Below are positions 1 to 25,894 of a stretch of 64,000 nucleotides of DNA, one piece after another. The notes under the pieces are model-generated. The model was not told the DNA's origin. It saw only the letters and a list, made by a program, of their open reading frames with translations, and did not search any database. Within the stretch, counting starts at the first letter, position 1, and the number at the start of each line of letters is the position of its first letter. Position numbers and translations under genes: made by a program. The DNA comes from Candidatus Omnitrophota bacterium (lineage in GTDB: Bacteria > Omnitrophota > Gorgyraeia > JABMRG01): positions 191,832 through 255,831 of the forward strand of contig JAQUQI010000001.1 in NCBI GenBank assembly GCA_028716165.1, written 5' to 3'.

Positions 1-3000
1 TTTTTACAAATTCTTCTTTCGTTTTGTAGAAAACATGGTATCCATGGTTATGAATGTCTATATGAGCATTTAATATAATTTTAGGCAAATGTTCGTATTT
101 TTGTTCGGTTGCGGGAATTTTAATTATGATATTAGTATGGCCTGGCCTAGATTTGATAGGGACAGATTCTATGTCTATTCCTTTAATACTTGTTTTTTTA
201 ATTTGTTGGATTAGAGCATCGTGTATTTGTTCATCTCCGAGAGAAGCAACTTCATCTAATAAAATATGGGCCTTTTCGTATAGTTCTTCTAGTTTTTCTG
301 CTTCTGGTTTTACTTCTTCTTCAATTCTTATTTCCTCAGGCTTTTTTTTCAACCGCTTTTTTTCTTCCCTCAAAGAAAGCAGGTCAGTTTCCAACCTTTC
401 TTTTTCTTGCCTAAGCAAAGCAAGATCTTTCGTTAAAAACTCCTTTTGGCTTGTTAATTTTTCAACCTCTAAAAGAAGGTCTTGTTTTTGAAGCTGAAAC
501 CGAGCTATTTCAGCTGTTAATATTCTGTGTGCTTCTGCTGCTTGGGCTATTTCGTGTTTACTGTTACTTAAACTTACACGTAAAGCTTCCTGTGCTCGAG
601 ATAGCTCCGCGAAATTTGCTTGCTTTTGCTGGCCTTCTGACTTTAATGTCTGCAGATGATCTGTTAAATTTTGAAAATTCTTTTCAAGCTGGGTTATTTT
701 TTGCAAAAGATAATCTTTTTGCTCAGCAAGACTTTTTATTTCTTCCCCAAGCATACTTTTCTGCTCCTGCGCTAATAAGATTTCTTGCCTTTTCTGAGTT
801 ATTTGATTAAGCAGATCTTGCATTCTGGAATTTAATTTGTCCACCAATGATACTTTAGCGTTTATCTTAGTTTCTTCGTCAGCTTCCTGCTTATCTTTTT
901 CATCAGTAATTTTGGTTATTTGCGCACGAAGCGTATGTAACGCCGCCGTCAGTTTTGCCAACTCTGCTTGGTCTGACCGCAATTTATTTTCAAAAGAATC
1001 TTTACGCTTAGCAAGATCTGAAATATCCGCTTTATATCTGGCCTTTTCGTTTTTTAATTGGCTTAATTCTAAGTTAATATTATCCAGTGCCATTTTAACC
1101 CGATTAAAAACTTTTTCGGCCTCTAATCTCTGGTCTTCAATCTGTGCCAAATGAGCTTCAAGAGCCTTCTTATCTGTTTTTAGTTTTTCTATTTCAGATG
1201 ATAGGCCGGCTAAGGTGATATTTACTTGGGTAATTTGCTGATGAGTATTGTCTAATTGTTCTTCGGAAGAAGTTTTCTTGCTTGATAGTTCAGAGATCCC
1301 TGTTTCAATATCCTCTTTGGCTTTATTACGGGCTTGTATTTCAGCTTCAAGAGCAGATTTTGTTTTTTCTAAGGCTTGTATTTGCCGGCGCAGGTTTTCA
1401 GCATCTGAAGATATTACATCTTGCGTTGCTTTCTCTTTCTTGTCTATTTCTGCTTGTATATTTGCAAGGCGTTGCTCAAAAACAGTTATTTCTTGGACAA
1501 TATTATTTTTATCCTGCCTAAGCCGGGCTATATCAGCAGATAAAGCACTGTTATCAGCCTCAAGCTGATCCTTGCGAGCTTTAAGAGCCTCTATTTCACT
1601 TACAAGAGTGTTTCTTTCAGATTCCAAAGATCTTGTCTGCTCTTCAAGGGCTTTGGCCTGTTCTTGTGTAACTTGCGCAGATACGTCATCTTCAGAGGGC
1701 TCAACAAGTAAAACAGGCGGGACTTGAACTGGCAAAGGCCTTTCTTTTCTTTTTAAGGCCTTTTCCCTTAAGCGGCCCTCCCCCATTTTAAAAAGATAAG
1801 GCTTTAAAGGCAGGCTTAATTCTTCTAAAAGTTCTTTCTTCCTTTTTAATGTAGACTCACTTACTGTAAGAAGGCCTATATATTTACCCTCACCTATGTC
1901 TATACCAATTTCATCTTTTATAAAATTAGCTCTTTTTTCCAAATCTATCTTTTCCGACCGTGCAAGCCGCTGTATGTACTTTGCTTGCATATTAGCGCCA
2001 AGGGATTTGAGAAAGCCTTCCTGTGTGCACTGAGTTGATTCTTTTTGTTCTGGAGGAGCCCGTAGCGCAGGCTTTTCTGAAGCAGCCGGTATTTCGTCCT
2101 GTTGCTTGCTTATATCCCCTTTTAAACCTTCTACTTGCTTATATAAAGCATCTACTGCCTTACCCATTTGGGCAAGGGCATCTCTTGCTGCTTCAAGCTC
2201 TTTTAATTGTTCTAGTGCGGATTTCAGCCATTCGTTTGAATCTTCATTTTCAGCAGGCGGTGCTGTAATCTTACGATGTTTTGTCATACCAGCCAGAAAT
2301 ACACCTAGCTGCTTTTCAACATCATCGGTTTTCTTCTCAAGATCTGTAATTCTTCTTGCATTATGTTCGAGGTCATCGGCAATTCCTGCATCTGTTTTTT
2401 TAACTTCTGTAACAGGTGGTATTACAGCTGCGGCCACTGGCTTTTTTGTTGGTTCTGCGAGTTTTGCAGGTTCTGCTTGCGCTACTGGTACTACAGGTGC
2501 TAATGGTTTTGCAACCGCAGGAGCCTCTTGAGGTTGTTGATGTGCTTCAGTATCCGGTTTCTGTTGCTCTCTAAGAAGCCTTTCAAGTTCTACGGCTTTA
2601 TCTTTATTTTCTGCGGCACTTCTTTTGACGGCTTCTTCATCCTGTTTTGCTTGAACTAAGAGCCTTTTTGCCTCTTTAAGCTCATCGTCTTTCTGCTTTA
2701 AAGACGCCTCAAGTGCGTTTGACTCTGTTATTTTCGATTTAAGGGCTTTATTTCGTACTAATAAAGATAGAATTGAAACTACAGAAATACCTATAAGCAA
2801 TAAGAGTGATAAAATGGCTAGTGTTTTTTGAAGGGCAGAGCTGTCTTGCCAGAATCTGCTTAATGTGTGGGGGGCTTCTGTCTCTTGTTTAAGTTTTTGT
2901 TCATATACTTTTTGCTGAGCAGAGAGCTCTTTTTCAAGGCTGGCTACCTTTTCTTCCTGCTCTGTTATTTTATCCTGCTGTTGGCTGATTCTATCTTCAT

Positions 3001-6000
3001 AGGCCTTTGCTTGCCTCTGAGAATCTTCCAGGCTTTGGGCAAGGGTTTCTGCCTTTTGTCTTTGCTCACCAAGCTTATCTTTTAAATCCCGGGCCATTAC
3101 TTCTGCCTGATCTGCCTGACTTTGGAGTAAATCCTTAATTTCTGCTATCTTTTCTACAAATTCGTCCTGAGCGCCTGTAACCTTATCATGCAATTCAGAA
3201 AATCTTTCTAAAATCTCTGCTTTTTCTTCCTGTAAGGACTCTACATCACTTTCTAAAGCCTGAGCTCTGTCTTGAAGCTCAGCAATCCTTTGTCTATCCT
3301 GTAATCTTTCGCGGGCTTCTCTTAATTGCCCTAATGGTTGGCGCCTTAAGCCCTGTTCCTCTAAAGCCTGGGCCAAGCGCCCCATATCAGGCAACCAATA
3401 CAAGTAATTACTTACCTGCTCAAGGCTGCCTTTACCTTTTCTTAAGGAATTTAAAGCCATTCTCAGCCGTGATAGATCAGCACGAGAAAGTGAGTAGTCT
3501 TTTTCAGCGCCACGTAAGGCCTCTACTGTCTGGCGGCCAATTCTTACGCCCTCCCACCAGAAGGTACGGCTGTCCCTGTCCGCAAGCTGGCATATCAGTG
3601 AGGCTATTTCAGAATACCTTACTGCTTCAATTCTTTGTATATCAACCTGCTCTTGTTGCGTTAATGGTATTATAACTTCCGCGAGTTGAGTTTGCGCATT
3701 AGACATGCTGGCCAGGCCCATTGTAAAAATGAATGCTGAGATAAGCAGTATGTTTCGAAGTATTTTAGTGGGGTTGAAATTTTTAAAGAATGTGGGTTTT
3801 GCAGATGAGATACCTGATGAAGATGATTTGATATTGTCTTGGGTGCCAAATACCTCCTTAGAAGCAGGCGACGGTAAATCTATTTCTGGGAGATCTTTTT
3901 TAATTGTTTCGGTAGGCACAGGCTGCGACAAGTCTATTGGGGGCCCTCTCCTTTGCCATATTCTTCTTAAAAGTAATGTTTGCCAGGAGATATTGGGATC
4001 GACTCTTTTTTTCCAAAAATAATTCCATTGCGGACTGAAAGTTTCTATATACTCATTTCGTTCTGATTTATCATTCCAAAGTCCTAAATTCTTTAAATGG
4101 TCAAATCCTCCTATTTTTCTAATCGTCGTTGGTGCTGTAGGATGTTTTGTGTCGAAATAACGTTGAAGTATAGAAAAATTAGAAACAAAACTACTCATTA
4201 ATACTTCCTGAAAACCAACATAATCTGCATAGCGTGCTATTTCTTCAATAACCCTGTCTGCAATTTTTTCCACAGAAATGGGCCAAGATCTATCAGATGC
4301 AGGAAGCTGCATCGCATCAATTATCAATACGGGAATTCCTTCTCTTTCAGCTACTATTGTATATACATTTCCTACCCAAACTCCTTCTTGAAAAATCTTA
4401 AATACCAAAAATCCAGGGTCAAATAAAAACTGGGGAATGGTATTATAGAAAAAGGCTCCCGTCCTGCCTGAGATTGCTGTACAATCACCGCTTGCTTCAC
4501 CTATAGCTATATCATCGGGCGTCCTGCCAAATAAAACCATCTCAAATCTAATGTCTTGCGCGTCTTCCAAATCAAGGTCTCTTGCCTCATGCAAAATAAT
4601 AAGCTGATCTAGATAATCATTTACTTCGGCCAATTCTCTTTGCAAAAGCTTATTTAAATCAGCGCTTAATTCGTGAGTTTTCTCAAGTGAAATAATTTCT
4701 GAGCCTAGTCCCACACGTAAACATTCTTCTATTAAACCAAGGGCTTCTAAATAAGTGTTTTCATTAAGTGATGTTCGCAGATTAACTAAGCGTGCTTTAA
4801 AACGCATAAATGCCAAGCTTTTAAGCAATAAAAAATAATTTTGTACTGCTGTCCGCTGATTAACTCGTTCCCAAAAAGTTGGTTTATTTAAATGGTCTCT
4901 TTCTTTTTTTATTTTATATAAAATTTCTCTTTCTGTCTCATATCTATGCAAAATAGGTTCACATTCCTCAATCAAAGAATTTAGGAATTTTTCAATAAAT
5001 TTCTCTATCTGTTCATTTCTATCACGTTTAATATCATTTTCTTTTATTATGAACGAAAATACGTGCCTTGGCTGGTCAAAATCATTGCTTAAACCTAAAT
5101 GATTTGTGTCTATTTTAAATTGCCTATAAAAATCTTGGCCAACAAAAAATTCATGAATGGATTTATAATCTGAAAGTACAGTAAACAATAACTTCATTAC
5201 TTTAAGCGATTGGTTGCGAGAGATGCCCACATCCCAGGGTAGTTTTATATCAATATGTGACGGCAATCTTTGCCTTAACGTAGGATTAATTTTTAGTAAC
5301 ACCTGCCCTAATAAATCCTGTATTTCAAATGGAAGATGATATTCTTCGTATAAAGGCCTGAGTAGCCGAGGTGAAGGTGCCGTATTGTTAAAATAGTCGG
5401 AACGAATATAATCTGTCTTGTCCTTTTTCTCATAAGGATATGAATATGCGTCTTCTTTAAGCAATTTATACAAAAAGCAAAAGATCTTATACAGTAGAAA
5501 TATCCCTGTAGCTATGCCTACTAATAAAAGCATAGATTCAGCAAAAGTGGTAACAGAACTTTTAACAATAGTAGCTGCACGAGCCATATTAGTAAAAGAT
5601 AATAAGAAAAAACCTGTAAAAATAAGTTTTAAAGGCACGGATCTGCTAATAGAGGGGCTGGCAAATTGCAAGCTAGGCATTTCCCTTTCTTTTGGTAGAA
5701 TTGTACCTAATTCTTTTTCCAGCTGTTCGATGAATGCTATGCGCGACTTCATTTTTACTTCTATTTCATGTATTTCTTGAATCATCTTATCTAATTCAGT
5801 TTTCTTCTTATCTATTGCCGGTTTTAAAGCGCCTATTACTGCAGTTCTTTTAAAATTAACTGCCTTATTGTAACTTTGCTGTAATTGACGAAGTTCTGTT
5901 GATATATCCTCAACAAGTGCTTGTAACCGAATAGTTTCAGCTTGAAATCCGGCAAACAGTCGCTGCGATTCTGCAATTTCCTTTTGGTATCTTAAGCTCT

Positions 6001-9000
6001 CTTTTGTTATATGTCTAATTTTTTTTGTTTTCGGCTCAATTTCAAATTTATACCCATTAACAGGTCTGAAATCACCTGTCGCTTCACTGCTAAAAAACTG
6101 AACATATTCTTTACTAAAACCAAATTCCTGTGCATATTCTGACGAGCCAGCTTTTTTTAAATTTAAGCTTTCTTGGATTATTCCATCATCTTTAATTGCC
6201 TGAAAAATTGCAGTTTTAATGCTTTCCGATCTTGTAGATGGGGTTGAACTTATTACAAGAAAGTCAAACCCTTCGTAAGCCAACCAATTTTTTAACTGTT
6301 GAATTAAATTCTTTGCAAGGTTCCTCCTGCGGGCATTCCATTCATCACCATTATTATCAGAAAGGGGGTGATGAGACATTTGAAGAACATCCAAAAATAA
6401 TCCTGTCCTATTTTCATTATCTTTGACTACTAACGAATATATATTGCCTATCCATTTGCCATTTTCAACTACTTTAAACAAAAAAAACGCCGGATCAACA
6501 ACTGTGTTAAATGAGTCAGAAAAATGCATATTCGCATGAGAAATACCGCTTTGAGGACTTGCCGAGCAATCTCCACTAACATTACCTTTCAAGAAATCAC
6601 TTATAGTTTTTCCTGATAAGAAAAACTGCAATATTCCTTCGCCTCCTACTCCAATGGCATTATTTGTATCAATAATTTTCCTTTTTAAGAAAGGAATTAC
6701 TTGCTGTTTAATGCGGGGGTTGGAAGTAAGCCTGCTCATTTTTTGAGATAACTCAAAAAGTTCCTGCCAGTACATAGAAATAAGTTCTAATCTTTGGAAT
6801 TCATCGTTTATAGTAAATATCTCATTTCTGCTTTCCTTTATTTCATCGGAAGAACTAAAAGCAAGTATTTCAATAAGTTGTAGAATACATGGCAACCTGT
6901 CTTGAGAAGGTATATCTTCCCAGCCTAACATCATCTTCAACAATCTTGAGGCCACGCCAGCAACATTTTCTTTAGTAATGAATTCTTCTACCTCTTGCTT
7001 GCCCAGAAGATCCTTTTTAGCTTTTGCGAAATTTCTATATAAATTTGGCCATTTGTTACGTAAATTTATAATAATATCTTGAACTGCTCTTACTTCATCA
7101 GACATAGGCATAATATTAGAGAAGTCTCTTTCATGTTTTTCAGTAATAGCTACGTCATATAATATTCTAAATTTCTCACCTGGCTTGTTAAATTCGGAGT
7201 TCAAAGCTTGGGTTCCTTGGCGAAAAGTTCTATAAAATATGGGGTTTTCAGTTTCAAAATAAGAATAAAGACCATCGCGACCCATCTTAGACATTGCTTT
7301 TTGAATTCCAGTATGAGTTAAATCTGAACTTATAGTGTTTTCTTTAACTGCACTAATCCATTCTTCTGCACTAACCGCGTCTCTTATATCCGCAAGATGA
7401 GAAGGCACACCTAATTTGACCAATTTCTGCTCTACAATATATTTCCTTGCTTTTTCTACTCTCTCTTCCACGCTTCTTGTAGGATACGTTAACTCAACTA
7501 AGAGATTATAACTGACGGCAAGAACTTCACCAAATTTAGCTCTATATTGGTTCAAAGCTGTGGCTAAATTGCGCCTATCTTTCCTTTTTCCTTCTTCAGA
7601 CAAACAAAATTCCAAAATTAATTTCATACCCCTGGCAAACGGCTCAATAATTTCTTTATCAAGACGTGATATAATTTCCATCCAGAATAAGAATTCTTTT
7701 TTATCTGGAACAACATGCACGAGTTCTGATATCGCAGTCCTTAAAAGATTGACAGATTCTATCTTTTGCCAAGATATTTTTGATTCAACATTATCGATAG
7801 CGGCGATTATTTCCCAAGAGTCTTTTTGATTGGCCGTATATTTGCGTGCTGCTTCTTCTTTGGCCTGGGCATAAGCCTTAAGGTCTGAATATGCAGCTAG
7901 TACTCTTTGGCTTCCAGACTTCCAGATGGTATCCTCTAATTCGGTTAATTTATTAAGCCAAAAAACAAAAGTGTTTTTATCTGTCGAATCTTGCGTAATC
8001 GCGATGATAATATCTTTAAAAGCAACTATTGCATCTGTATTTTTTCTTGTTACCTTATTTTTAAAATCATCAATTAATCCCAAAAAGCTTACTTTCTCTT
8101 GGGCAGTTCTACTAATTTTATTTGCTGCCGCTTTAACTGCCTGTTTATAATCTCTCAAATTCATATAAACTAATAAAATTTTTTGTTTGCCAGACTGCCA
8201 TACAGCCTTATCAAAGTTGTCCAGCGTTTGTATCCAATATAAATAATCTTCTAACCCGTCAGCATTTCTAGTTAGTTCGGGGATAATATCTTTAAGCAGA
8301 TCTGCTGAATTTAAGCCATAACTAGCTATTTTATCTTTTAAATTATTAGTAGCATTGACAAGTTGGGTTTTTTGCTGGTTATTATGCGTAAATTTTCTGA
8401 CAGCTTCCTCTTTGGCCCGCTCAAATTCCAAAAGATCACTGTAAACCTTAATTACAGATTGAATTCCTGATTTCCAGATCTTAATATCAATACTAGCCAA
8501 TACACCAATCCAATAAACAAATTCATTTAGATTTCTTGCATTTTCGATAAGTTGAGGCAATGCAATTTTTAAAAGACCAGCGGCATTTAACCCGTGGGCA
8601 TCTAAAACAGTTTTCAGATTATCAATAACTACAGATACCTGTCGCTGGTCATCGGACGAATGAGCAAATTTACCTAAAGCTGCCTTATGTGCTTCTTTAA
8701 ATTCTTTTAAGTCTGCGTAAATACTTAGGATACACTGAGAAGACTGCCATAAATCTTTATGAAGTTCTATTAATAAATTCATCCACGAAACAAATTCTTC
8801 TAAGCTTTGAGAATCTTGAGTTACTTTAAGTATTACATCCTTAAGCAGGCTGACACCACTTATCTGGTTTTGTTCTAATTTTATTTTTAAATCATTTATT
8901 ATGTTTAAAAGGCGCTGTTTGTCACCACTATTTTTAGTAAATTTATGTACAGTTGCTTCTTTTGTCTGAACATAGGAAACTAAATCAGAATAAATTTGTA

Positions 9001-10444
9001 ATACACGCTCTTTCTTTTTCCAATTGCCACTTGCACATAACCGAGTAATTTTGGACTCATGCCTTACATCCATCCAATTTTTTAATAAATTTTCCAGCGT
9101 CTCAGTGTGCATTCTTGAAAATGTACCTGCAGTATCATTTATTAAATCATCAGAAATGTCTTCAGGAAAATTGGTATTCACCGTTGAGAGCCGTATAAAG
9201 GTAAAGGGGTAACAAAACAAGCGCCATAGCATTCTTGATAGATCTATACCTCTCCCAATCAAAAACGGCAATCCTATGGCTATAAGTGGCATAGCAATTA
9301 TTTCTGTTAACCAAGCTACCCACTTAACAGCAGGCGTAGCATTATCAGTTCCTAACTGCCACCAATTAAAGCTATAGGCAGCCCATAATAACAGGCCTCC
9401 AATAAACCATCCCGCACCAGCTAGACCACCACTAAAATCATCAACGTCACGGTAAAAATCACCTACCCACTCACTTTTTACAGGTATAATTTCTTTAAGG
9501 GTTTTCCAGTATGACAAGGAAGGAATACGAGAATCTCTTTTGTTAATTGATAGGTAATTGCCGAGTAAAACGCCGGAAGCGCTTCCTATAATTGGAAAAC
9601 TTAAAGACGCAATACGCAGCGAAATTACACCTACTGGACTAATGAGAATTGCGGAGCAAACAATAGCACCTATAAGTAGACTGATAACACCTACGACTTT
9701 TCCTTCTTTTGCAATTGAAAGGCCTCCAACAATCATGCCTCCAAATATTCCCAAAAAACCTGCTACAAAAGAATAGGGATTACGTAAGATTTGCAATATT
9801 GAAACCGTTCCACTACTTATAATACCGAAAGGTATAAGTGAAATAGCATAACTAGCCACAACCCCAAAAATAGCCCACATAAAAACATCCTTGGCTATTG
9901 CACCGTGCCTATTACCAAACAAACGCATAGTATGCTTGGGGCTAGAAAAGAAAAAGCTATAAGGCAACGGTGCTCTTTTTGTATGTATTGGTTTAAATTT
10001 CTTAACGGGCTTTGCAGTGATTAAGTTTTCTGGGTGGCTTTCTTTCTGGACTAGTAAATGTTGCTGCTCCGGGGAAGCGCCTGATGAAGATGATCTGATA
10101 TTGTCTTGTTTGTCTGGAAAAATAGGTGAGCCATCTTTAAGGCGTTCTGTGGTATCAGCTGTATTTAGTTTATTATGAAGATAATCAACATCTAAAGATT
10201 TAATGAGCGCAATTGTTTCAGGGTCTATACTACCTAAATCAACGCCCTTATATCCTAATGCCCCCTCTATTTCTAGGCTAATAGGATTTGACTTTACAGA
10301 TTGTGCTCTTAAAGCAGAGTCATTATTGAATGAAAAGTCCCAATTACATGCCCACGAGATATCGTGGAGTAAAAAGGCAAGGATTATAACTATAGAAATG
10401 ATTTTAAAGATAAAACGGCTGGTCTTATTACGCTGCCACACCAT
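1..10444 (-). CDS. Giant hypothetical protein, at least 3,481 aa. It starts at ATG 10444 with an N-terminal signal anchor (MVWQRNKTSRFIFKIISIVIILAFLLHDISWA) and continues past the window start, so it is 3'-truncated here. It is membrane-anchored, with ~92-aa tandem repeats, a duplicated SGDC[ST]A-motif domain and a long C-terminal coiled coil.
   Basis: There are no long plus-strand ORFs across 10.4 kb. I translated the minus strand manually, and the frame agrees at the start codon (10444), at ~8000, at ~5500, at 3780-4080 and at the window edge (pos 1-61 read ...HIDIHNHGYHVFYKTKEEFVK). The translation is protein-like throughout: heptad-like E/K/Q/L-rich text at 130-3400, and hydrophobic helices at ~9200-10000, ~3720-3790 and ~2770-2840. 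The ORF tool probably skipped it because no stop codon lies in the window. Confidence 0.7.
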   Translation of the reverse strand, partial: MVWQRNKTSRFIFKIISIVIILAFLLHDISWACNWDFSFNNDSALRAQSVKSNPISLEIEGALGYKGVDLGSIDPETIALIKSLDVDYLHNKLNTADTTERLKDGSPIFPDKQDNIRSSSSGASPEQQHLLVQKESHPENLITAKPVKKFKPIHTKRAPLPYSFFFSSPKHTMRLFGNRHGAIAKDVFMWAIFGVVASYAISLIPFGIISSGTVSILQILRNPYSFVAGFLGIFGGMIVGGLSIAKEGKVVGVISLLIGAIVCSAILISPVGVISLRIASLSFPIIGSASGVLLGNYLSINKRDSRIPSLSYWKTLKEIIPVKSEWVGDFYRDVDDFSGGLAGAGWFIGGLLLWAAYSFNWWQLGTDNATPAVKWVAWLTEIIAMPLIAIGLPFLIGRGIDLSRMLWRLFCYPFTFIRLSTVNTNFPEDISDDLINDTAGTFSRMHTETLENLLKNWMDVRHESKITRLCASGNWKKKERVLQIYSDLVSYVQTKEATVHKFTKNSGDKQRLLNIINDLKIKLEQNQISGVSLLKDVILKVTQDSQSLEEFVSWMNLLIELHKDLWQSSQCILSIYADLKEFKEAHKAALGKFAHSSDDQRQVSVVIDNLKTVLDAHGLNAAGLLKIALPQLIENARNLNEFVYWIGVLASIDIKIWKSGIQSVIKVYSDLLEFERAKEEAVRKFTHNNQQKTQLVNATNNLKDKIASYGLNSADLLKDIIPELTRNADGLEDYLYWIQTLDNFDKAVWQSGKQKILLVYMNLRDYKQAVKAAANKISRTAQEKVSFLGLIDDFKNKVTRKNTDAIVAFKDIIIAITQDSTDKNTFVFWLNKLTELEDTIWKSGSQRVLAAYSDLKAYAQAKEEAARKYTANQKDSWEIIAAIDNVESKISWQKIESVNLLRTAISELVHVVPDKKEFLFWMEIISRLDKEIIEPFARGMKLILEFCLSEEGKRKDRRNLATALNQYRAKFGEVLAVSYNLLVELTYPTRSVEERVEKARKYIVEQKLVKLGVPSHLADIRDAVSAEEWISAVKENTISSDLTHTGIQKAMSKMGRDGLYSYFETENPIFYRTFRQGTQALNSEFNKPGEKFRILYDVAITEKHERDFSNIMPMSDEVRAVQDIIINLRNKWPNLYRNFAKAKKDLLGKQEVEEFITKENVAGVASRLLKMMLGWEDIPSQDRLPCILQLIEILAFSSSDEIKESRNEIFTINDEFQRLELISMYWQELFELSQKMSRLTSNPRIKQQVIPFLKRKIIDTNNAIGVGGEGILQFFLSGKTISDFLKGNVSGDCSASPQSGISHANMHFSDSFNTVVDPAFFLFKVVENGKWIGNIYSLVVKDNENRTGLFLDVLQMSHHPLSDNNGDEWNARRRNLAKNLIQQLKNWLAYEGFDFLVISSTPSTRSESIKTAIFQAIKDDGIIQESLNLKKAGSSEYAQEFGFSKEYVQFFSSEATGDFRPVNGYKFEIEPKTKKIRHITKESLRYQKEIAESQRLFAGFQAETIRLQALVEDISTELRQLQQSYNKAVNFKRTAVIGALKPAIDKKKTELDKMIQEIHEIEVKMKSRIAFIEQLEKELGTILPKEREMPSLQFASPSISRSVPLKLIFTGFFLLSFTNMARAATIVKSSVTTFAESMLLLVGIATGIFLLYKIFCFLYKLLKEDAYSYPYEKKDKTDYIRSDYFNNTAPSPRLLRPLYEEYHLPFEIQDLLGQVLLKINPTLRQRLPSHIDIKLPWDVGISRNQSLKVMKLLFTVLSDYKSIHEFFVGQDFYRQFKIDTNHLGLSNDFDQPRHVFSFIIKENDIKRDRNEQIEKFIEKFLNSLIEECEPILHRYETEREILYKIKKERDHLNKPTFWERVNQRTAVQNYFLLLKSLAFMRFKARLVNLRTSLNENTYLEALGLIEECLRVGLGSEIISLEKTHELSADLNKLLQRELAEVNDYLDQLIILHEARDLDLEDAQDIRFEMVLFGRTPDDIAIGEASGDCTAISGRTGAFFYNTIPQFLFDPGFLVFKIFQEGVWVGNVYTIVAEREGIPVLIIDAMQLPASDRSWPISVEKIADRVIEEIARYADYVGFQEVLMSSFVSNFSILQRYFDTKHPTAPTTIRKIGGFDHLKNLGLWNDKSERNEYIETFSPQWNYFWKKRVDPNISWQTLLLRRIWQRRGPPIDLSQPVPTETIKKDLPEIDLPSPASKEVFGTQDNIKSSSSGISSAKPTFFKNFNPTKILRNILLISAFIFTMGLASMSNAQTQLAEVIIPLTQQEQVDIQRIEAVRYSEIASLICQLADRDSRTFWWEGVRIGRQTVEALRGAEKDYSLSRADLSRLRMALNSLRKGKGSLEQVSNYLYWLPDMGRLAQALEEQGLRRQPLGQLREARERLQDRQRIAELQDRAQALESDVESLQEEKAEILERFSELHDKVTGAQDEFVEKIAEIKDLLQSQADQAEVMARDLKDKLGEQRQKAETLAQSLEDSQRQAKAYEDRISQQQDKITEQEEKVASLEKELSAQQKVYEQKLKQETEAPHTLSRFWQDSSALQKTLAILSLLLLIGISVVSILSLLVRNKALKSKITESNALEASLKQKDDELKEAKRLLVQAKQDEEAVKRSAAENKDKAVELERLLREQQKPDTEAHQQPQEAPAVAKPLAPVVPVAQAEPAKLAEPTKKPVAAAVIPPVTEVKKTDAGIADDLEHNARRITDLEKKTDDVEKQLGVFLAGMTKHRKITAPPAENEDSNEWLKSALEQLKELEAARDALAQMGKAVDALYKQVEGLKGDISKQQDEIPAASEKPALRAPPEQKESTQCTQEGFLKSLGANMQAKYIQRLARSEKIDLEKRANFIKDEIGIDIGEGKYIGLLTVSESTLKRKKELLEELSLPLKPYLFKMGEGRLREKALKRKERPLPVQVPPVLLVEPSEDDVSAQVTQEQAKALEEQTRSLESERNTLVSEIEALKARKDQLEADNSALSADIARLRQDKNNIVQEITVFEQRLANIQAEIDKKEKATQDVISSDAENLRRQIQALEKTKSALEAEIQARNKAKEDIETGISELSSKKTSSEEQLDNTHQQITQVNITLAGLSSEIEKLKTDKKALEAHLAQIEDQRLEAEKVFNRVKMALDNINLELSQLKNEKARYKADISDLAKRKDSFENKLRSDQAELAKLTAALHTLRAQITKITDEKDKQEADEETKINAKVSLVDKLNSRMQDLLNQITQKRQEILLAQEQKSMLGEEIKSLAEQKDYLLQKITQLEKNFQNLTDHLQTLKSEGQQKQANFAELSRAQEALRVSLSNSKHEIAQAAEAHRILTAEIARFQLQKQDLLLEVEKLTSQKEFLTKDLALLRQEKERLETDLLSLREEKKRLKKKPEEIRIEEEVKPEAEKLEELYEKAHILLDEVASLGDEQIHDALIQQIKKTSIKGIDIESVPIKSRPGHTNIIIKIPATEQKYEHLPKIILNAHIDIHNHGYHVFYKTKEEFVK

Positions 10445-10875
10445 GAATAAACCCCTATTTGAGACGTTTATACAATCTTTGAAAAAAGACTTATAAAGAT
10501 AATAGCATAATCCGCGTTTTCTGTCAACAAAAATTTGTATTTAGTAGTGTCAAGATAATTGTGCACTTGCGTATTTAAGTTCAGATTGAATTGAGTCTTT
10601 AGACATATCCTCTGGTATTGTTATGTTAAGGTACTTTATGATACCAAAGATCCATAAGTTTAAAGATTTCGCTTTACATATTGCCATTGTCTTGCGACCG
10701 TATCCTGGGAGAGGTCTAAGTCTCTCATGGGCATATCCTCCCTGGGACATCACGTCCCGGTTATTGTCGCTAATAACCAAAGGATATGCCTTTTTTATTG
10801 TGATTTCAATGAACTTTTATACTGAAAGTGCACAGAATATTTTACATTATGTTAAATCAAGGCAGGTGGCAGGTT

Positions 10876-12678
10876 TTATTTCGCGGGATTGGGCACGTCA
10901 CTCCAATTGTAATCTGTCTGTAATAATAAAGCCGTTTGTATAAATGCCATATGGGAATAGCCCTGGGGAAAATTACCGGTAAGGCGTCCTGTCCCGGGCT
11001 CTATGTCTTCAGAAAATAACCCGAACCTGTTGGCATGCCTTATAATATTATCAAACATAAGCTTTGCCTTGTCCTTACAACCTATAAGATAGAGAGCATT
11101 TATCATCCAAAAAATACACACAATAAAAGAATTTTTCGGCACGCCAAGGCCGTCATCTCCGAGATACCTGAAAACAAAATTATCCTTTACCAGCATTTCC
11201 ATGCTTTTTGCGACCGTATTTTTCATGCGGGCATCGGCCTTGTCAATAAAACCATAATGCAGCATGAGAAGGTTAGCGGCATCAAGCTCATCCGAACCAT
11301 AATACATTGTAAATGAGCCTATTCTGTCATTCCAGCCGTTTTTTAAGACATCGTCCTTAATCTCTGAAGCTATTTCAAGCCATTTGCGGACATACTGGTT
11401 TTTGCCTATCCTTTTGGCTATGGCCGCGGCCCTGTTCATTGCCACCCAGCTCATCAGCTTGGAATGGACATAATGCCTGGGCTCCTGCCTGCGTTCCCAC
11501 ATGCCCTGATCGGGCATCATCCATTGCTGTGACGCTATAAAAGCCGATGTCCTGACCGCTGTCCATATCTCCTCATTAAAATCTATCTTGACCCTTTTAT
11601 TTAGCACAAAATACGTGTATATGGCTTCTATCAGCTGGCCGTATATATCATTTTGCGTTTGGCGATACGCGTTATTGCCTATGCGCACAGGCTTGGAATT
11701 TTCATATCCGCTTAAATGTTCAAGCAGTTTTTCCTCCAGCACTTTTTCTCCGTTTATACCGTACATAATGGATATATTGGCCCTCTTGGAAAGCATGCGG
11801 TTTAGAATAAAATCCATATAATTTGACGCTGTCTTTAAATGTCCTATCCTTATATACAGGTCCACTACCATAGCGCTGTCGCGTATCCAGCAATACCTGT
11901 AATCCCAGTTTCTGTCCTTGCCTATTATCTCCGGAAGCGATGTTGTGGGGGCGGCAATAACAGCGCCGGTCTTTTGATATGTCATAAGCTTGAGCGTTAT
12001 AGCCGACCTTATAACCATATCCCTGAATTGCCCGGGCACATTTGTCCGATAGGCCCAATCCAGCCAGTATGTCTTGGTCTTTTCATATTCAATATAGACC
12101 TTATCGGTATTAATATCCTCAAGCTTCTCATGATAGGAAAAAAGCGCGTAAGAGGTAGCTCTTAACTCCATAGGTTCAGACCTGATTATTTTGTCAAGGT
12201 CAAGATTGCTATACAGGTAAAAACTGTTATATGCGCCCTTTTGGGATATAATCTTGATATAATCGCCTTCATTGCACAAATCAGCCTGCGCGCAGGCATA
12301 GTTAGGCATAGGCTTTAATTCAAAAATTATCTTAGGGTTGCCTGAAACAAGCAAAATGTCCCTGTGTATCTCGGGCGGGCAATAGCACTCTTCTCTGGCA
12401 TTGATAAACCTGGGCATATAATCTCTTACTTCAAAGGTGCCGTCTTTGGTGACAAACACCGTTTTAAGTATCGGGGTACGCGGTATATATGCCTGTGTAA
12501 TGCTTATCGTATCAACGCCTTTGATCCTGAAATAGCCCCCAAGGCCTTCATCTAATAACCGGGCAAAGACAGAGGGCGAATCAAAATACGGCAGGCACAG
12601 CCAGTCAATGGAGCAGTCGCTTCCTATCAGGGCCGCTGTAGTGCAATTGCCTATTATAGCGTAATCATAATTTTTCAT
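10876..12678 (-). CDS. Glycoside hydrolase family 15 protein (glucoamylase or trehalase-like), 600 aa.
   Basis: Length and (alpha/alpha)6-type composition fit GH15-related glucoamylase or glucodextranase proteins. The N-terminus reads MKNYDYAIIGNCTTAALIG. Confidence 0.55.
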   Translation of the reverse strand: MKNYDYAIIGNCTTAALIGSDCSIDWLCLPYFDSPSVFARLLDEGLGGYFRIKGVDTISITQAYIPRTPILKTVFVTKDGTFEVRDYMPRFINAREECYCPPEIHRDILLVSGNPKIIFELKPMPNYACAQADLCNEGDYIKIISQKGAYNSFYLYSNLDLDKIIRSEPMELRATSYALFSYHEKLEDINTDKVYIEYEKTKTYWLDWAYRTNVPGQFRDMVIRSAITLKLMTYQKTGAVIAAPTTSLPEIIGKDRNWDYRYCWIRDSAMVVDLYIRIGHLKTASNYMDFILNRMLSKRANISIMYGINGEKVLEEKLLEHLSGYENSKPVRIGNNAYRQTQNDIYGQLIEAIYTYFVLNKRVKIDFNEEIWTAVRTSAFIASQQWMMPDQGMWERRQEPRHYVHSKLMSWVAMNRAAAIAKRIGKNQYVRKWLEIASEIKDDVLKNGWNDRIGSFTMYYGSDELDAANLLMLHYGFIDKADARMKNTVAKSMEMLVKDNFVFRYLGDDGLGVPKNSFIVCIFWMINALYLIGCKDKAKLMFDNIIRHANRFGLFSEDIEPGTGRLTGNFPQGYSHMAFIQTALLLQTDYNWSDVPNPAK

Positions 12679-12761: not shown

Positions 12762-14072
12762 TCAAGATATTTTTCGCTTCCTTGATATCCTTTGCCTTGA
12801 CGGATTGAAGTAACCCAGCATCAATGACGGAAAATTGCGGCGCAGGCCCATAATTACCTTACGCATGCCCAAAAGTTCTTCCTTTTCCGGAGAAAATCCA
12901 ATAGACTTGAAATAATAAACCGGGTCTATGTTAAGATTCCTTAGCTGTATCATGTCTATACCCGACGACCTGATAAAAGACAGGAACCCGTCTGATTCAT
13001 TTCTGGAATCCGTAAACCCGGGTAAGGACAGATAGTTAATTGAGACAAACCCTGAAGCCTGCTTTGCCTTTTTAATTGATTCCATTACATGGCTAAACTT
13101 GTAATCCGCCGGCCTGTAATACCTGTCATAATAAAGTTCTTGCACGCTGTTTATACTGACCCTTATACTGTTAAGGCCTGCCCGAAATAATCTCTCCACG
13201 GCTTTTGGCTTACTTGCATTTGTATTCAAATTGATAATGCCCTTGCCCGATTTGCTTCTTATTATTCTGATAGCTGCCTCAAGCGTATCGGATACCATTA
13301 AAGGCTCTCCCTCACAGCCCTGCCCAAAACTAACAATAGGGTCCTTGACATTACCCATATGGAATAAGGCCACCTCGGCTATTTCATCGGGGCTGGGGAC
13401 AAATTTTATCCGGGGCTGGGTGATAGAACATCTCTTATCGGGCTGATGGGATATGCACCCTACGCATCTTGAATTGCAATACGGCGATGAAGGAAGAGGC
13501 GCTTCGTAACGAGCCAGAAAAAGATTTTTTGCCGCGGGACAGGCATAGCACAGGGCGCACTTTTCAAGATGCCTGAAAAGCCTGTTTTTCGGAAATAATC
13601 TCCGGGCATTCCTTATGCCTGATTTGATCTTGGCAATATCCATAAACCGCAAGTCCTGGCGTAATTCCTTATCAACCCTCATGGCGGCAGTGTATAATTT
13701 TTCTTTATACAGGCATACGGCGGAATACGAAAAAAGAGGCAGGGGCCTGGCATGTTCCGATTCAACATAACAGCAATTATACGTTATCGTGTAACCGGGC
13801 GACAGGAAGGCTGAAACCGCGAAACATGGAAGCCTTTTTTTTGAATACGGGTCCCTTTTCACGGCAATGTATTTTTTTAGGCTTTTATCATATCCTATGG
13901 GGGCCCTGTCCGGCATGATAAAAAGCTCGCTGGCAGCGGGAAGCTCAATCAGATCATCCGCTGACAATGGAAAAAATATGCCTGCTTTCATTCCGCATGG
14001 GGCAAGGCCTGAAACAGGATATATCCCGCCTTTTCTATCGGCAACAATAAGTTTAAGCTTGTCCATTTTCAT
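12762..14072 (-). CDS. Radical SAM domain protein of unknown function, 436 aa.
   Basis: CNSRCVGC (Cx3Cx2C) lies mid-protein, with a GQGCEGEPLM glycine-rich SAM motif. A ~200-aa N-terminal extension carries extra Cys residues (CALCYACP). It is co-oriented with hydE. Confidence 0.6.
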   Translation of the reverse strand: MKMDKLKLIVADRKGGIYPVSGLAPCGMKAGIFFPLSADDLIELPAASELFIMPDRAPIGYDKSLKKYIAVKRDPYSKKRLPCFAVSAFLSPGYTITYNCCYVESEHARPLPLFSYSAVCLYKEKLYTAAMRVDKELRQDLRFMDIAKIKSGIRNARRLFPKNRLFRHLEKCALCYACPAAKNLFLARYEAPLPSSPYCNSRCVGCISHQPDKRCSITQPRIKFVPSPDEIAEVALFHMGNVKDPIVSFGQGCEGEPLMVSDTLEAAIRIIRSKSGKGIINLNTNASKPKAVERLFRAGLNSIRVSINSVQELYYDRYYRPADYKFSHVMESIKKAKQASGFVSINYLSLPGFTDSRNESDGFLSFIRSSGIDMIQLRNLNIDPVYYFKSIGFSPEKEELLGMRKVIMGLRRNFPSLMLGYFNPSRQRISRKRKIS

Positions 14073-14988
14073 ATGAGCAAACCGCTCTCCTTAACCCGTC
14101 ATAAGTTGTTACGCGGGGCAAATACCCCAAATCTTCTTTTATCCTGTCTATGCTGTAAAGCCTGTCTTTGGTAAAATACGAAACCTTATGCCTGATAAAG
14201 GGCATAAAAGACAAACCCGCGATAAGAAACCCCGGCAGATACAAAGGCGGTTTCGCTTTAAGGCATTTTGCCGTATATTCAAGGAACTCGGCTATAGTCA
14301 AAACTTCTTTATCAGCTACTATATACGTGCCTTCATAAGCTTTTTCATTAACAATGGCCTGAACCATTACGTCTACCACATTGTCAATATAGACAAGTTG
14401 TATCCTCGCCGAGCCTGTGCCGATAACCGGTATCAGCCTTTTTTTTACAAGCCTGCATATAAAACGCAAAAGATGGGGTTCATTTTCGCCGTATACCATA
14501 ACAGGCCTAATTATAGATATTTTAAGGCCTTTCTGCCTGTATAAAAATGCCGCTTTTTCAGCCTCAACTTTTGAACAACCATATCTATTGGTAAATGAAT
14601 ACGGCATATCGTCTTTAAGAGGGGCCGCGCTATTTCCGCTTATAACCGCTATAGAGCTCAAATATACGGCCCTTTTAACGCCTTGGTCAAGGCAGGCCTT
14701 AAAAACATTATAACTGCCGTCTTTGTTTACCTTCAAAAGCCTTTTGAGCGGGCCATTACCGACGAGCGCGGCGCAATGAAACACTATATCAGGCTTTTGT
14801 TTGCCTAATACATCCTGCACGGACCGGATATCCTCAATATCAATATAAACAGGTTTAACTTTTGATAAAATCCGGCCCAGGCAAGACAGCTTTCGTCCGG
14901 CACAAATTACTTCATGCCCTTGCTCAACCAGCCTAGTAGCAAGCCTCTTGCCTATAAAACCCGTTGCTCCTATAACAAGCGCTTTCAT
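14053..14988 (-). CDS. NAD(P)-dependent epimerase/dehydratase family protein (SDR), 311 aa.
   Basis: N-terminal Rossmann motif MKALVIGATGFIGKRL and a YxxxK-type region. Confidence 0.6.
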   Translation of the reverse strand: MKALVIGATGFIGKRLATRLVEQGHEVICAGRKLSCLGRILSKVKPVYIDIEDIRSVQDVLGKQKPDIVFHCAALVGNGPLKRLLKVNKDGSYNVFKACLDQGVKRAVYLSSIAVISGNSAAPLKDDMPYSFTNRYGCSKVEAEKAAFLYRQKGLKISIIRPVMVYGENEPHLLRFICRLVKKRLIPVIGTGSARIQLVYIDNVVDVMVQAIVNEKAYEGTYIVADKEVLTIAEFLEYTAKCLKAKPPLYLPGFLIAGLSFMPFIRHKVSYFTKDRLYSIDRIKEDLGYLPRVTTYDGLRRAVCSYENGQA

Positions 14989-16019
14989 AAATTTACCTTA
15001 AAGCCTCGGACAGAATCCCCCGCATGCGCCATAGCGTCGCCGGCATTATGCGATGCATATCTTCCTATCCGCTCCAGCATGGCCTTTGCCCGGGCCATTG
15101 AATCCAGCGGGTTTTCTCCAATGCAAAATTTACCGGGATAAATATCATAATGGCTCCTAAAAGCCGGCGGAGTAATGTCCGGCATAAAAACATTCGCACC
15201 GCATTTGAGAGCCTTTTCAATACCGTCTTTAGCAATCGTGCCGATAGCCGTTGTCGCCGGTATATGGGCGAGCGGCAATGCCAATCTTGCCGCGGCTATA
15301 ACACGCAATGCCAACTCAAGCCCGCCCGGGACATTATTTCCAAGAGGCGTATTGGGATGAGGTATAAACGGGCCTATTCCTATCATATCAAGGCCGAGTT
15401 CCCGCATTAAAAGTATATCATCGCAAAGCGTATCATATGTTTGACCCGGTAAGCCTGTCATGATACCGGATCCTGTCTGAAACCCCAAAGACTTCAGGCG
15501 TTTTATGCAGGATATCCTGTTATCATAGCAAGAGGGTTTTAGCTTTTTAAAAAGAGGCCTGTCTGAAGTTTCAAACCTTAAGAGATATCTATCGGAGCCG
15601 GCATCCTTGAGACTTTTATATTCGTCAAAATCCAGCTCCCCTAACGACAATGTAATACGGCAATCTGATTCTGATTTTATCCTCTTTATTATAGCGCACA
15701 GGTTATCCGTGCCATAGGCCTTGTCCTCGCCCGACTGTAAAAGTATCGTCTTATAACCGTGCCTGATTGCTCCAAGCGCTGTGTCTATTATTTCACCGGC
15801 GCTCATCCTGTAGCGCTTGACAAGGCCATTACCTTTCCTTAATCCGCAATACAGGCAGTTGCACGCGCAGTAATTGGAAAACTCTATAATACCTCTTATG
15901 TGGACCTCGTTTCCAAAACGCGCCGCCCGCTCGGAGTCTGCCGCGGCAAAAAGAGCGCCGGGGTCATCAGACTTTAACCATCGCAGGATATCTTCTCTTT
16001 TTATGTCCGGCATAATCAA
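14985..16019 (-). CDS. hydE: [FeFe]-hydrogenase maturase HydE (biotin-synthase-like radical SAM).
   Basis: CACNCLYCGLR Cx3Cx2C motif near the N-terminus, ~344 aa, BioB-like. Sits with hydG and hydF. Confidence 0.8.
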   Translation of the reverse strand: MIMPDIKREDILRWLKSDDPGALFAAADSERAARFGNEVHIRGIIEFSNYCACNCLYCGLRKGNGLVKRYRMSAGEIIDTALGAIRHGYKTILLQSGEDKAYGTDNLCAIIKRIKSESDCRITLSLGELDFDEYKSLKDAGSDRYLLRFETSDRPLFKKLKPSCYDNRISCIKRLKSLGFQTGSGIMTGLPGQTYDTLCDDILLMRELGLDMIGIGPFIPHPNTPLGNNVPGGLELALRVIAAARLALPLAHIPATTAIGTIAKDGIEKALKCGANVFMPDITPPAFRSHYDIYPGKFCIGENPLDSMARAKAMLERIGRYASHNAGDAMAHAGDSVRGFKVNL

Positions 16020-18780: not shown

Positions 18781-19036
18781 ACGGTTTGCTCAACGATGAT
18801 TTGACGCTTATGCCCGCGATCTTTCCCAATTTACCCGTCAAGGCGCCTAATTCGTCTGTTGTCGCGTCAACAACCAGAGTTATAACATTAAGGCCCTTTT
18901 TGCCGCTGGGCACACCCATTCTCGCTAATATGATATCCCCGTAACCGGAGAGTATCTCATTTACCCTGGGGGCGTTTTTCTTCCTGTCCTCTACTATAAT
19001 ACCAATAAATCCCAGGCGTTTGTCTGTATTTGCCAT
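18749..19036 (-). CDS. Small ACT/NikR-C-like putative iron-only hydrogenase system regulator (TM1266-like), 95 aa.
   Basis: About 90 aa, with an IVEDR...VNEIL...GRMGVP...TGKLG pattern typical of the small protein family found next to hydEFG. Its 3' end overlaps the hydF start. Confidence 0.55.
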   Translation of the reverse strand: MANTDKRLGFIGIIVEDRKKNAPRVNEILSGYGDIILARMGVPSGKKGLNVITLVVDATTDELGALTGKLGKIAGISVKSSLSKPYAGGRDAQDA

Positions 19037-19075
19037 CGGTGGCGCCTTTTTACGCGTTTGATTCTTAAAATATTT

Positions 19076-19127
19076 CTTTTAAAAAAATAAACCCCAAAAT
19101 TACCAAAAATAAGCGGTAAGTTTGGGG
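19076..19127 (-). terminator. Rho-independent terminator ending the hydrogenase operon, just downstream of hydA1.
   Basis: The minus-strand transcript reads CCCCAAACTTACC-gcttattttt-GGTAATTTTGGGG, a 13-bp stem with one mismatch, followed by the U-tract tttattttttt. Confidence 0.6.
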
Positions 19128-19217
19128 AAATATTAAATACATGGTTTCCTTGGCTTTAGATTTTCAATCCTTACCGCAGAACGATTATGTTTAAAGGCCC
19201 TTGCCGGAAAGAGCCTT

Positions 19218-20963: not shown

Positions 20964-20965
20964 AA

Positions 20966-22768: not shown

Positions 22769-22780
22769 TTAGTTTGGCCT

Positions 22781-23659: not shown

Positions 23660-23662
23660 TTT

Positions 23663-25501: not shown

Positions 25502-25552
25502 AAAACCTTTTCCATTCCCGCCTAAAGTACCGCGCGGTATTGCCAGATAGAT

Positions 25553-25894
25553 TTATCGGCGTATTTTATTAATAGAGTTTACGGCAAGCAGGGCATACGT
25601 CATAACGCTTGCCCCTCCGACAAGAACGGCCACCATGCACGCCTCTATCATTTCATCCTTGGACCAGCCCGCGTCAAGGCAGTGCTTGACAGCCCTGGGT
25701 ATGCAAACAGGGCATTTCTGGCTAACGCCGGCAACCAGGAGTAAAAGCCATTTCATTTTTTGGCTTATCCTTCCTTTTCCGGTCATAGCATTCTTGCTTT
25801 GAATAAAAGCCTCGTATTGCCCGGGCACAGACTTTTTGACATCATTCATAAGCGCCTGGAATTTCTTCAATATATCATCTGATCCATATTTCAT
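25553..25894 (-). CDS. Carboxymuconolactone decarboxylase/AhpD-like family protein. The ORF-track start at 25993 would overlap hydA2, so the internal Met (MKYGSDD) at 25894 is preferred.
   Basis: About 113 aa from the internal start, with a KCPVCIPRAVKH CxxC...H motif like the AhpD core. Confidence 0.5.
   Translation of the reverse strand: MKYGSDDILKKFQALMNDVKKSVPGQYEAFIQSKNAMTGKGRISQKMKWLLLLVAGVSQKCPVCIPRAVKHCLDAGWSKDEMIEACMVAVLVGGASVMTYALLAVNSINKIRR

Follow-up and report, generated by a model that had tools for sequence, protein, structure and literature searches.

A giant, putatively membrane-anchored protein with two GNAT-fold modules in a Candidatus Omnitrophota genome

We analysed a stretch of 64,000 nucleotides (nt) from the genome of a Candidatus Omnitrophota bacterium (contig JAQUQI010000001.1, positions 191,832 to 255,831; hereafter the window), the first 10,444 positions of which are taken up by one giant gene on the minus strand. 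The explanation that we favour, with moderate confidence, is that this gene encodes an inner-membrane-anchored multidomain enzyme scaffold that has most of its mass in the cytoplasm and represents a rare Omnitrophota family. Judged by sequence comparison, the gene belongs to an unnamed family of membrane proteins of 4,000-7,000 residues, which is rare and found mostly in Omnitrophota genomes.

The reading frame and its relatives

Translation of positions 1-10444 (minus strand) yields one open frame of 3,481 codons with zero stops. The remaining two frames of this strand contain 285 and 358 stops over the same interval, and from their stop rate the probability of such an open frame arising by chance is about 1e-146. 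These values bear out an initial annotation of the window, in which a single uninterrupted minus-strand frame of at least 3,481 amino acids (aa) had been proposed. The same annotation held that the protein is cut by the window. Indeed, the frame runs off at position 1, and the protein is therefore C-terminally truncated. The open reading frame (ORF) starts with an ATG at 10444, preceded by an AGGGG box, and the closest in-frame stop on the 5' side of this ATG lies at 10543. Since the N-terminus of the protein ('MVWQRNK..RFIFK...DISWA') is kept in relatives (MLTWQNHRKLRIFIK...DLSWA and similar), we consider the start site to be correct. Upstream of it the gene appears to have its own near-consensus promoter-like site.

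1..10444, minus strand: giant ORF of 3,481 codons, 3' end cut by the window edge (translation and colinear relatives)
10499..10527, minus strand: promoter-like site TTGACA-17-TATTAT with TG extension, 11/12, a consensus match only; sigma-70-type, about 55 nt 5' of the ATG

An exhaustive phmmer search with aa 1000-2199 as query against 1.84 billion representatives (E <= 1e-3) returned 75 relatives of the giant protein, 24 of them below 1e-30. The best relatives are 2,482-6,788 aa long with 33-41% identity. They span both of the modules that we designate A1 and A2, and are colinear with aa ~310-2250, comprising a transmembrane (TM) block, repeats, A1, a TM hairpin and A2. Scans with an A2-domain profile located 8 loci in genome collections and 13 in metagenome collections. 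Of the 8 genome loci, five carry the name Candidatus Omnitrophota or Omnitrophica, so that the family is concentrated in a phylum known for giant genes, in keeping with the earlier reference to giant genes of candidate phyla; the other three come from a 'Saganbacteria' metagenome-assembled genome (MAG), an 'Ohtaekwangia' MAG and one further bin. A k-mer-indexed homologue search gave zero matches for aa 1-2260 and two for the domain profile. The complete genes (L006, L007, L008, L012, L014, L015, L016 and L020) encode 4,271-5,068 residues, and the full colinear order reads TM block, 92-aa repeats, A1, TM hairpin, A2, TM-loop-TM, coiled coil and peptidase. Colinearity of the window protein with P0001-P0003, L002, L003, L006, L010, L012, L014 and L015, found by BLASTP and phmmer, places it in the family.

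The domain order of the giant gene is repeated in more than 10 independent assemblies, and its 92-aa repeats show neither similarity nor a tandem repeat at the DNA level. Owing to this lack of similarity and to the shared order, assembly collapse in the repeats is unlikely and was rejected. A fusion of several genes by assembly error, raised as a caveat in the initial annotation, was likewise not borne out by these data. Although the G+C content (GC) of the gene is 0.37 as against 0.45 for the rest of the window, an artefact, be it misassembly joining several genes or a chance open frame, can for practical purposes be dismissed, given the chance value above, the identical segment order in the independent assemblies, which include complete 4,271-5,068-aa genes, and the lack of any DNA-level repeat able to collapse.

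Domain architecture and predicted topology

TM segments were called by a Kyte-Doolittle scan and repeats by self-comparison of the chopped protein. The scan gave 11 hydrophobic segments, at aa 11-29, six within aa 191-400, and aa 1603-1621, 1640-1658, 2228-2246 and 2544-2562. From the N-terminus to the window edge, the protein is divided as follows.

10349..10444, minus strand: N-terminal signal-peptide-like segment, aa 1-32 (K/R-rich n-region, h-region aa 11-29, 'SWA' then C33; D[ILV]xWA in relatives)
9875..10348, minus strand: short N-terminal region, aa 33-190 (relatives have at least 1,000 aa here, with TPR/HEAT repeats)
9245..9874, minus strand: polytopic TM block, aa 191-400, with 5-6 hydrophobic segments, conserved in the family
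7649..9031, minus strand: five 92-aa helical repeats, aa 472-932, each opening with W[QK]S[GS] (self-comparison)
7421..7648, minus strand: degenerate sixth repeat, aa 933-1008 (self-comparison)
6788..7492, minus strand: all-helical N-subdomain of module A1, aa 985-1219 (invariant G/P/Y residues, KMGRDGLYSY...PGEKFR; no assignable fold)
6065..6787, minus strand: GNAT-fold domain of module A1, copy 1, aa 1220-1460 (Asp1292-Cys1293)
5564..5659, minus strand: internal signal-peptide-like segment 1, aa 1596-1627 (h-region 1603-1621, A-R-A at 1621-1623)
5471..5527, minus strand: TM segment, aa 1640-1658, predicted to lead the chain back to the cytoplasmic side (Kyte-Doolittle and charge)
4589..5377, minus strand: helical N-subdomain of module A2, aa 1690-1952
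3950..4588, minus strand: GNAT-fold domain of module A2, copy 2, aa 1953-2165 (Asp1987-Cys1988; sequence used for the structure model)
3695..3799, minus strand: internal signal-peptide-like segment 2, aa 2216-2250 (K-rich n-region, h-region 2228-2246, S-N-A then Q2251)
2816..3694, minus strand: predicted extracytoplasmic loop, aa 2251-2543 (about 120 aa without known fold, then coiled coil)
2759..2815, minus strand: TM segment, aa 2544-2562 (4 K/R within the next 15 residues)
245..2758, minus strand: predicted cytoplasmic helical/coiled-coil stalk, aa 2563-3400 (Pro/Ala linker aa 2636-2681; strongest heptad run aa 2938-3361)
2..244, minus strand: putative start of an M20/M28-type metallopeptidase domain, aa 3401-3481 (includes 'ILNAHIDI', aa 3457-3464)

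The architecture given in the initial annotation was thus essentially correct. The N-terminal anchor segment (aa 11-29) is present, as is the polytopic TM region, placed there at about 9200-10000 and found here at aa 191-400 (nt 9245-9874). Where five to six repeats of about 92 aa had been counted, five are clear (pairwise identity 23-37%) and a sixth is degenerate. Self-comparison also recovered the two copies of a globular domain of about 200 aa, with aa 1273-1454 aligning to 1968-2139 at 31% identity (E 6e-16). The internal TM segments expected at about 3750 and 2770-2840 lie at nt 3707-3763 and 2759-2815, and the Pro/Ala linker expected at about 2400-2560 lies at aa 2636-2681 (nt 2402-2539). 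The earlier feature list did not include the TM pair at aa 1603-1658 (nt 5471-5638). As to the coiled coil of more than 1,100 aa, described as extending over positions 130-3400, an E/K/L/Q/A-rich helical region of about 1,100 residues does exist; only about 520 residues of it, chiefly aa 2938-3361, score as strongly coiled-coil, by a rough heptad score with a shuffled sequence as calibration rather than by a dedicated coiled-coil predictor, and the last ~80 residues appear to be the start of a peptidase instead of coil. Pfam and NCBIfam scans of the whole protein and of seven segments gave only sub-threshold coiled-coil noise (SMC, Rad50, filament-like).

Inside the ORF there is a 29-nt direct repeat (3813-3841 and 10080-10108, 28/29 identical), around which the DNA is dissimilar. 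It encodes 'QDNI[K/R]SSSSG' at aa 2202-2211 and aa 113-122, and both copies are followed by 'AKP..K.F.P..K' and then by a hydrophobic segment. Gene conversion could account for the repeat, as could recent copying of a linker-plus-TM unit. Relatives vary in the stretch between signal peptide and TM block, which measures about 160 residues in the window protein. L007, L008, L011, L012, L019 and L020 have an extra conserved region there, with the motif 'IYHIQDAHA...LVLVEGG', and many relatives carry TPR or HEAT repeats as well. Another relative, of at least 6,879 residues and open at both ends (L010, 2-20638), has a phosphoglucomutase-like 'SASHSEANYNGFK' motif in its N-terminal part, recognized by eye, which suggests that fusions of this core with sugar-metabolism enzymes may occur.

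Each A module combines a helical subdomain with a GNAT-fold domain that is divergent and carries an invariant Asp-Cys dyad. In a core alignment of 38 diverse sequences, the dyad (SxDC[TS]) accounts for the sole two invariant columns; in the giant protein it is formed by D1292-C1293 and D1987-C1988. Conserved DPGF..FK, W[VI]GN[VI]Y and L.ID..Q strands follow it in the alignment. The modelled A2 copy (aa 1953-2165) shows the GNAT core fold, b1-a1-a2-b2-b3-b4-a3-b5-a4-b6, and the Asp-Cys pair is located directly after helix a1. In GNAT enzymes, the region after helix a1 helps to form the acceptor site. It is reasonable to suppose that the conserved cysteine could carry a thioester intermediate. 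A modules also occur outside giant proteins: among stand-alone homologues of 400-830 aa, 25 of 26 have hydrophilic N-termini, with neither a TM-grade segment nor a signal peptide. A group of soluble proteins of about 750-830 aa without Pfam annotation (P0044, P0046, P0051-P0054, P0057, P0060, P0062, P0063, P0066, P0067 and P0072) has a GNAT-fold core with 'GDLTGDCTAYH' at aa ~385-600, and constitutes a second, more distant branch of the A-domain family.

At the other end of the protein, the last residues in the window read '...PKIILNAHIDIHNHGYHVFYKTKEEFVK', and the last ~55 align with L002b and L015 ('PKIILNAHIDI.. HG.HVFYK'). The closest relative, L002 from an Omnitrophota MAG, aligns with aa 3068-3477 (E 1e-34) and has an identical 'ILNAHIDI', followed downstream by 'TGALDDRAGV...FTDLEE'. 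We take the H-x-D of 'ILNAHIDI' to be the metal-ligand motif of the M20/M28 family. In L001, a frameshifted relative on a low-coverage ENA contig, the coiled coil runs into a fragment annotated as Peptidase_M20/M28/M42 ('AVILNAHMD...GADDKAG...SEEIG'). Matches above the Pfam gathering cut-off were obtained for L002b (M28, 22.1 vs 21.3), L006 (M20, 30.1 vs 24.6) and L003b (M28, 39 vs 21.3); among 12 relatives, M20 was matched in 6/12 and M28 in 5/12. L002b also matches the solved tripeptidase 3rza weakly (E 0.002). Past the H-x-D, relatives have GA(L)DD[KR]AG and [SL]EE motifs, and the window ends before these. For the C-terminal 97 aa of the window protein Pfam gave no peptidase match, because the domain is cut off, and a PDB sequence search gave nothing significant. 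The C-terminus thus appears to be the start of an M20/M28-type metallopeptidase. Its relatives resemble the M20/M28/M42 peptidases (MH clan) in passing the Pfam cut-offs and keeping the H-x-D, Asp and Glu-Glu motifs; here, however, the peptidase is one domain of a giant membrane protein, situated close to its C-terminus and behind a coiled coil of ~800 residues.

The NAHxD motif is followed by 731-1,008 residues in complete relatives and by at least 1,516 in L002b. Since complete relatives have 4,271-5,068 aa, the full length of the window protein is probably 4,200-5,000+ aa. Past the peptidase, several relatives (P0003, aa ~4230-4560; L001, ~9300-9500; L015, L013 and L010) share the motifs 'GQGMFAPEEHAEVNEVI', 'LLAHEAIELGAK' and 'IHE[IL]GSAFFKLSH'. 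These His/Glu-rich regions have no annotation and may bind metal; in the window protein they probably fall in the missing part.

The orientation of the chain in the membrane was deduced from the charges flanking the TM segments in nine close family members, including the window protein. The TM segment before A2 has 0-1 K+R upstream vs 2-4 downstream. The TM segment after A2 has 3-4 K+R in the 15 residues upstream vs 0-2 downstream, and the TM segment following the post-A2 loop has 1-2 upstream vs 4-7 downstream (9/9 for both). The loop between these last two segments has 180-370 residues (~290 in the window protein). Under the positive-inside rule, this pattern would put the loop outside and leave the A modules, the long coiled coil and the peptidase in the cytoplasm. 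In L002, this loop opens with a LysM domain (SafA LysM 7r1l, E 3.2e-8; Ecp6, E 0.0035), and LysM binds peptidoglycan. It is the only supported LysM among the loops of the relatives: the L015-type loop looks LysM-like by eye, yet was not confirmed as such by phmmer against the PDB, which came back empty, or by BLAST against a LysM sequence of YgaU (E 0.011 over 26 residues). Taken together, the charge bias, the position of LysM in L002 and the soluble stand-alone homologues lead us to infer a cytoplasmic location for the enzyme modules, and with them the long coiled coil and the peptidase.

Proposed function and alternative explanations

In the favoured explanation, the GNAT-fold domains would carry out acyl or aminoacyl transfer, possibly via a thioester on the conserved cysteine, and the peptidase would remove or trim the acyl or peptidyl group. 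The coiled coil would dimerise and space the enzyme activities along the inner membrane face. The outward loop, which carries the peptidoglycan-binding LysM in L002, would fix the assembly to the envelope. Within the chain, the TM hairpin would separate A1 from A2, and the outward, TM-bounded loop of ~290 residues would separate A2 from the stalk.

A number of points weigh against an enzyme scaffold of this kind. The topology was obtained with a Kyte-Doolittle scan and charge counting rather than a trained predictor, and over aa 33-400 the signals conflict, as the conserved signal peptide predicts export of aa 33-190 whereas a very K/R-rich stretch precedes the TM block. The loop of the window protein itself (aa 2250-2545) has no LysM match at E <= 10. 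Only ~80 residues of the peptidase region are inside the window, which stops some 30 residues into the domain, and 'NAHID' (aa 3459-3463) is the only one of its metal-ligand motifs visible there. The contrast in codon composition between the giant gene and the rest of the window, given below, also counts on this side. As to the A modules, no Pfam GNAT model (Acetyltransf_1 and clan relatives) matched segments of the giant protein at E <= 10, and none matched 10 A-module homologues at E <= 0.01; a PDB sequence search with the A-domain profile yielded nothing significant. The Q/R-x-x-G-x-G/A pyrophosphate loop between b4 and a3 is absent across the 38-sequence alignment, in which b4 ('..IDAxQ') is followed by a variable loop of 8-40 residues without a conserved Gly. 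The GNAT-fold domains may not bind acyl-coenzyme A (CoA), or may be non-catalytic. Because the fold matches but the sequence models and the cofactor motif do not, we regard the A domain, on the strength of the structure model, as a divergent branch of the GNAT fold: it shares fold and strand order with the GNAT superfamily, but is without a match to a curated model and without the CoA pyrophosphate loop.

A K/R-rich n-region and an h-region, with a small-x-small motif at the end facing outward, are found in two internal TM segments, namely the first of the A1/A2 hairpin and the one that follows A2. At the first site, the window protein has NM-A-R-A|A (1621-1623) and relatives have ALA|Q, AQA|Q (three times) and AYA|Q, that is A-x-A followed by Q or A in 6/6. 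At the second, S-N-A|Q (2248-2250) corresponds to SWA|H, ANA|A, AHA|A and AFA|H in relatives, with [AS]-x-A in 8/9 and a lipobox-like LSSGC in the ninth. The N-terminus reads D[ILV]xWA| in the relatives that have this end. The internal segments thus resemble Sec signal peptides in their anatomy and are oriented as the topology requires. It is conceivable, though we consider it doubtful, that the protein is a membrane polyprotein cut by signal peptidase I at A32|C33, A1623|A1624 and A2250|Q2251 into three anchored proteins. Such processing is compatible with the enzyme scaffold, to which it would add a step. The conservation of the small-x-small motifs in spite of only ~35% overall identity speaks for it, together with the agreement between the N-in/C-out orientation of the segments and the proposed topology and with the existence of stand-alone proteins with one A module. 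However, A-x-A after a TM segment can be a plain helix cap, small residues are frequent at membrane interfaces, and a limited literature search found no bacterial precedent. In a 2026 survey of Omnitrophota, internal signal-peptide calls on non-first chunks of chunked proteins of at least 100 thousand residues (kaa) were suppressed as chunking artefacts (10.64898/2026.06.07.730766). The further-reaching version, in which processing would yield three stoichiometric anchored proteins, each with one enzyme module, and the GNAT modules would form a new cysteine-dependent branch of the superfamily, is more speculative and in our view rather improbable.

Long coiled coils and helical repeats, the TPR or HEAT repeats of relatives, the LysM in the outward loop of L002 and the lack of the CoA-binding loop would also suit a role as structural landmark or cytoskeletal scaffold, with the GNAT-fold domains and the peptidase serving as non-catalytic binding modules. 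Envelope organisers of the FimV/HubP type combine a periplasmic LysM, a TM segment and a large cytoplasmic helical or repeat part. Compared by description, the L002 relative has a similar layout (LysM loop, membrane span, large cytoplasmic part). However, no library search revealed sequence similarity to FimV/HubP, and the window protein lacks LysM and contains enzyme-fold modules. Moreover, an Asp-Cys dyad that is the sole invariant pair in 38 diverse sequences is what one would expect at a catalytic or ligand-binding site, and relatives keep the H-x-D, DD and EE peptidase motifs. We therefore consider a purely structural role unlikely.

The initial annotation had linked the protein to cell-cell attachment or predation and had pointed to adjoining pilus and glycan loci. 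Were it a surface adhesin or predation factor, its bulk would be exported and the coiled coil would form an extracellular stalk, attaching to prey or host together with pili. A conserved N-terminal signal peptide would fit this role, as would the pilin-like genes in the window, and an extracytoplasmic enzyme would not need the CoA loop that the GNAT-fold domains lack. M28 peptidases, furthermore, are often secreted. A surface action has also been proposed for Omnitrophota giant proteins (10.1101/2023.11.21.568195). Nevertheless, the adhesion or predation reading is not supported, because the three lines of evidence set out above (TM charge bias, LysM position in L002 and soluble stand-alone homologues) place the enzyme modules, the coiled coil and the peptidase in the cytoplasm. 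Pfam and NCBIfam scans of the giant protein detected no adhesin, dockerin, SecA-DEAD, C39, Ig-like or glycoside-hydrolase domain. The pilin genes are 38 kb off and there is no adjacent secretion system; the actual neighbours are a GH15 gene and [FeFe]-hydrogenase genes. An adhesin or predation factor accordingly seems quite improbable to us.

Genomic context and comparison with other giant proteins

Every gene in the window is encoded on the minus strand. The genes around and beyond the giant gene include the following.

10876-12678, minus strand: GH15 (glucoamylase/trehalase-type) hydrolase, directly upstream of the giant gene
within 12762-29567, minus strand: three radical-SAM genes (HydE/G-like) and HydF ([FeFe]-hydrogenase maturases), upstream of the GH15 gene
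19218-23659 and 25945-29567, minus strand: two HydABC-type [FeFe]-hydrogenase sets
22781-23659, minus strand: NuoE/HydC-type 2Fe-2S thioredoxin-like subunit fused to an N-terminal response-regulator receiver domain
23663-25501, minus strand: Cache-HAMP histidine kinase, directly upstream of the receiver-NuoE fusion gene
48061-49762, minus strand: four small pilin-like genes with class III (prepilin-type) signals, e.g. 'AFTLIEMLIVV'; two match Pfam N_methyl
49.9-61.6 kb, minus strand: glycosyltransferase/O-antigen cluster

An operon of the giant gene with the GH15 gene was considered; a 430-nt gap and the promoter-like site of the giant gene argue against it. The neighbours of complete relatives include no conserved partner gene. 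In L008, the giant gene is followed after 13 nt by a PF10091 glucoamylase-like gene (18074-19876), and the window has GH15 directly upstream; a glucoamylase-type neighbour in two cases may be coincidence. The receiver-NuoE fusion gene lies directly downstream of the histidine kinase and upstream of HydB/HydA, and the electron-bifurcating hydrogenase may be under phosphorylation control. Beyond the hydrogenase sets the window encodes Rex, LDH, rubrerythrins, NifS/NifU, and lipoate and glycine-cleavage genes. Hydrogenases, Rex, LDH and rubrerythrins together look like an anaerobic fermentative gene content. The pilin and glycosyltransferase genes are at least 38 kb from the giant gene, with ~30 housekeeping genes between; the window ORFs that were scanned did not include a pilus ATPase, platform or secretin. 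Scans of the window for tRNA, rRNA and Rfam families gave zero matches.

With a GC of 0.37, the giant gene has a GC at third codon positions (GC3) of 0.29, as compared with 0.41-0.53 (mean 0.49) in 16 other genes of the window. In seven relatives, the GC of the giant gene is not below that of its flanks, and the locus of the closest relative has 34% GC. The low GC3 within the window, combined with relatives that do not fall below their flanks, suggests that this gene of more than 10 kb was acquired horizontally from a low-GC lineage.

In published descriptions of Omnitrophota giant genes encoding at least 10 kaa, SecA-DEAD, C39 and dockerin/TSP3 domains recur, as do secretion/pilus clusters next to the gene, and the products were proposed to act at the surface or in predation (10.1101/2023.11.21.568195). 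According to a 2026 preprint, most Omnitrophota proteins of at least 10 kaa are TM-anchored, and the class with a cytoplasm-facing topology is more frequent than any other (10.64898/2026.06.07.730766). We did not find the family of the window protein described in either 10.1101/2023.11.21.568195 or 10.64898/2026.06.07.730766. With these giants it has in common the phylum, as regards most relatives, and a multidomain TM-anchored chain with fused enzyme domains and, in relatives, HEAT/TPR scaffolding. The combination of a signal peptide, TM helices and large cytoplasm-facing parts, the class reported in 10.64898/2026.06.07.730766, is probably shared by the window protein. However, the giants studied so far measure 10-147 kaa and have adjacent type II/IV secretion genes, whereas the present family measures 4-7 kaa and has no adjacent secretion system. 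SecA_DEAD, Peptidase_C39, and dockerin with TSP3 (Pfam) are absent from the window protein and from 12 relatives. The marks of the family are two unannotated, Cys-bearing GNAT-fold modules, the 92-aa repeats and the M20/M28 peptidase.

Very long proteins of Omnitrophota are already known, and the debate is whether they act as surface effectors or as membrane-tethered cytoplasmic enzyme arrays. A protein of 4-5 kaa in this phylum is by itself unsurprising; the GNAT-fold domain, the conserved internal signal-peptide-like segments and the compositional anomaly offer concrete points that can be tested. To this debate the locus contributes a compact, alignable family of 4-5 kaa with complete relatives, and several handles. 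One is the previously unannotated Asp-Cys GNAT-fold domain, which also occurs as small soluble proteins open to expression and assay, another the conserved metallopeptidase. The internal signal-peptide-like segments, in turn, make the idea that giant proteins are processed testable by N-terminomics. Finally, the step from a giant membrane protein with coiled coil to an adhesin can mislead; here, the evidence favours a mostly cytoplasmic protein.

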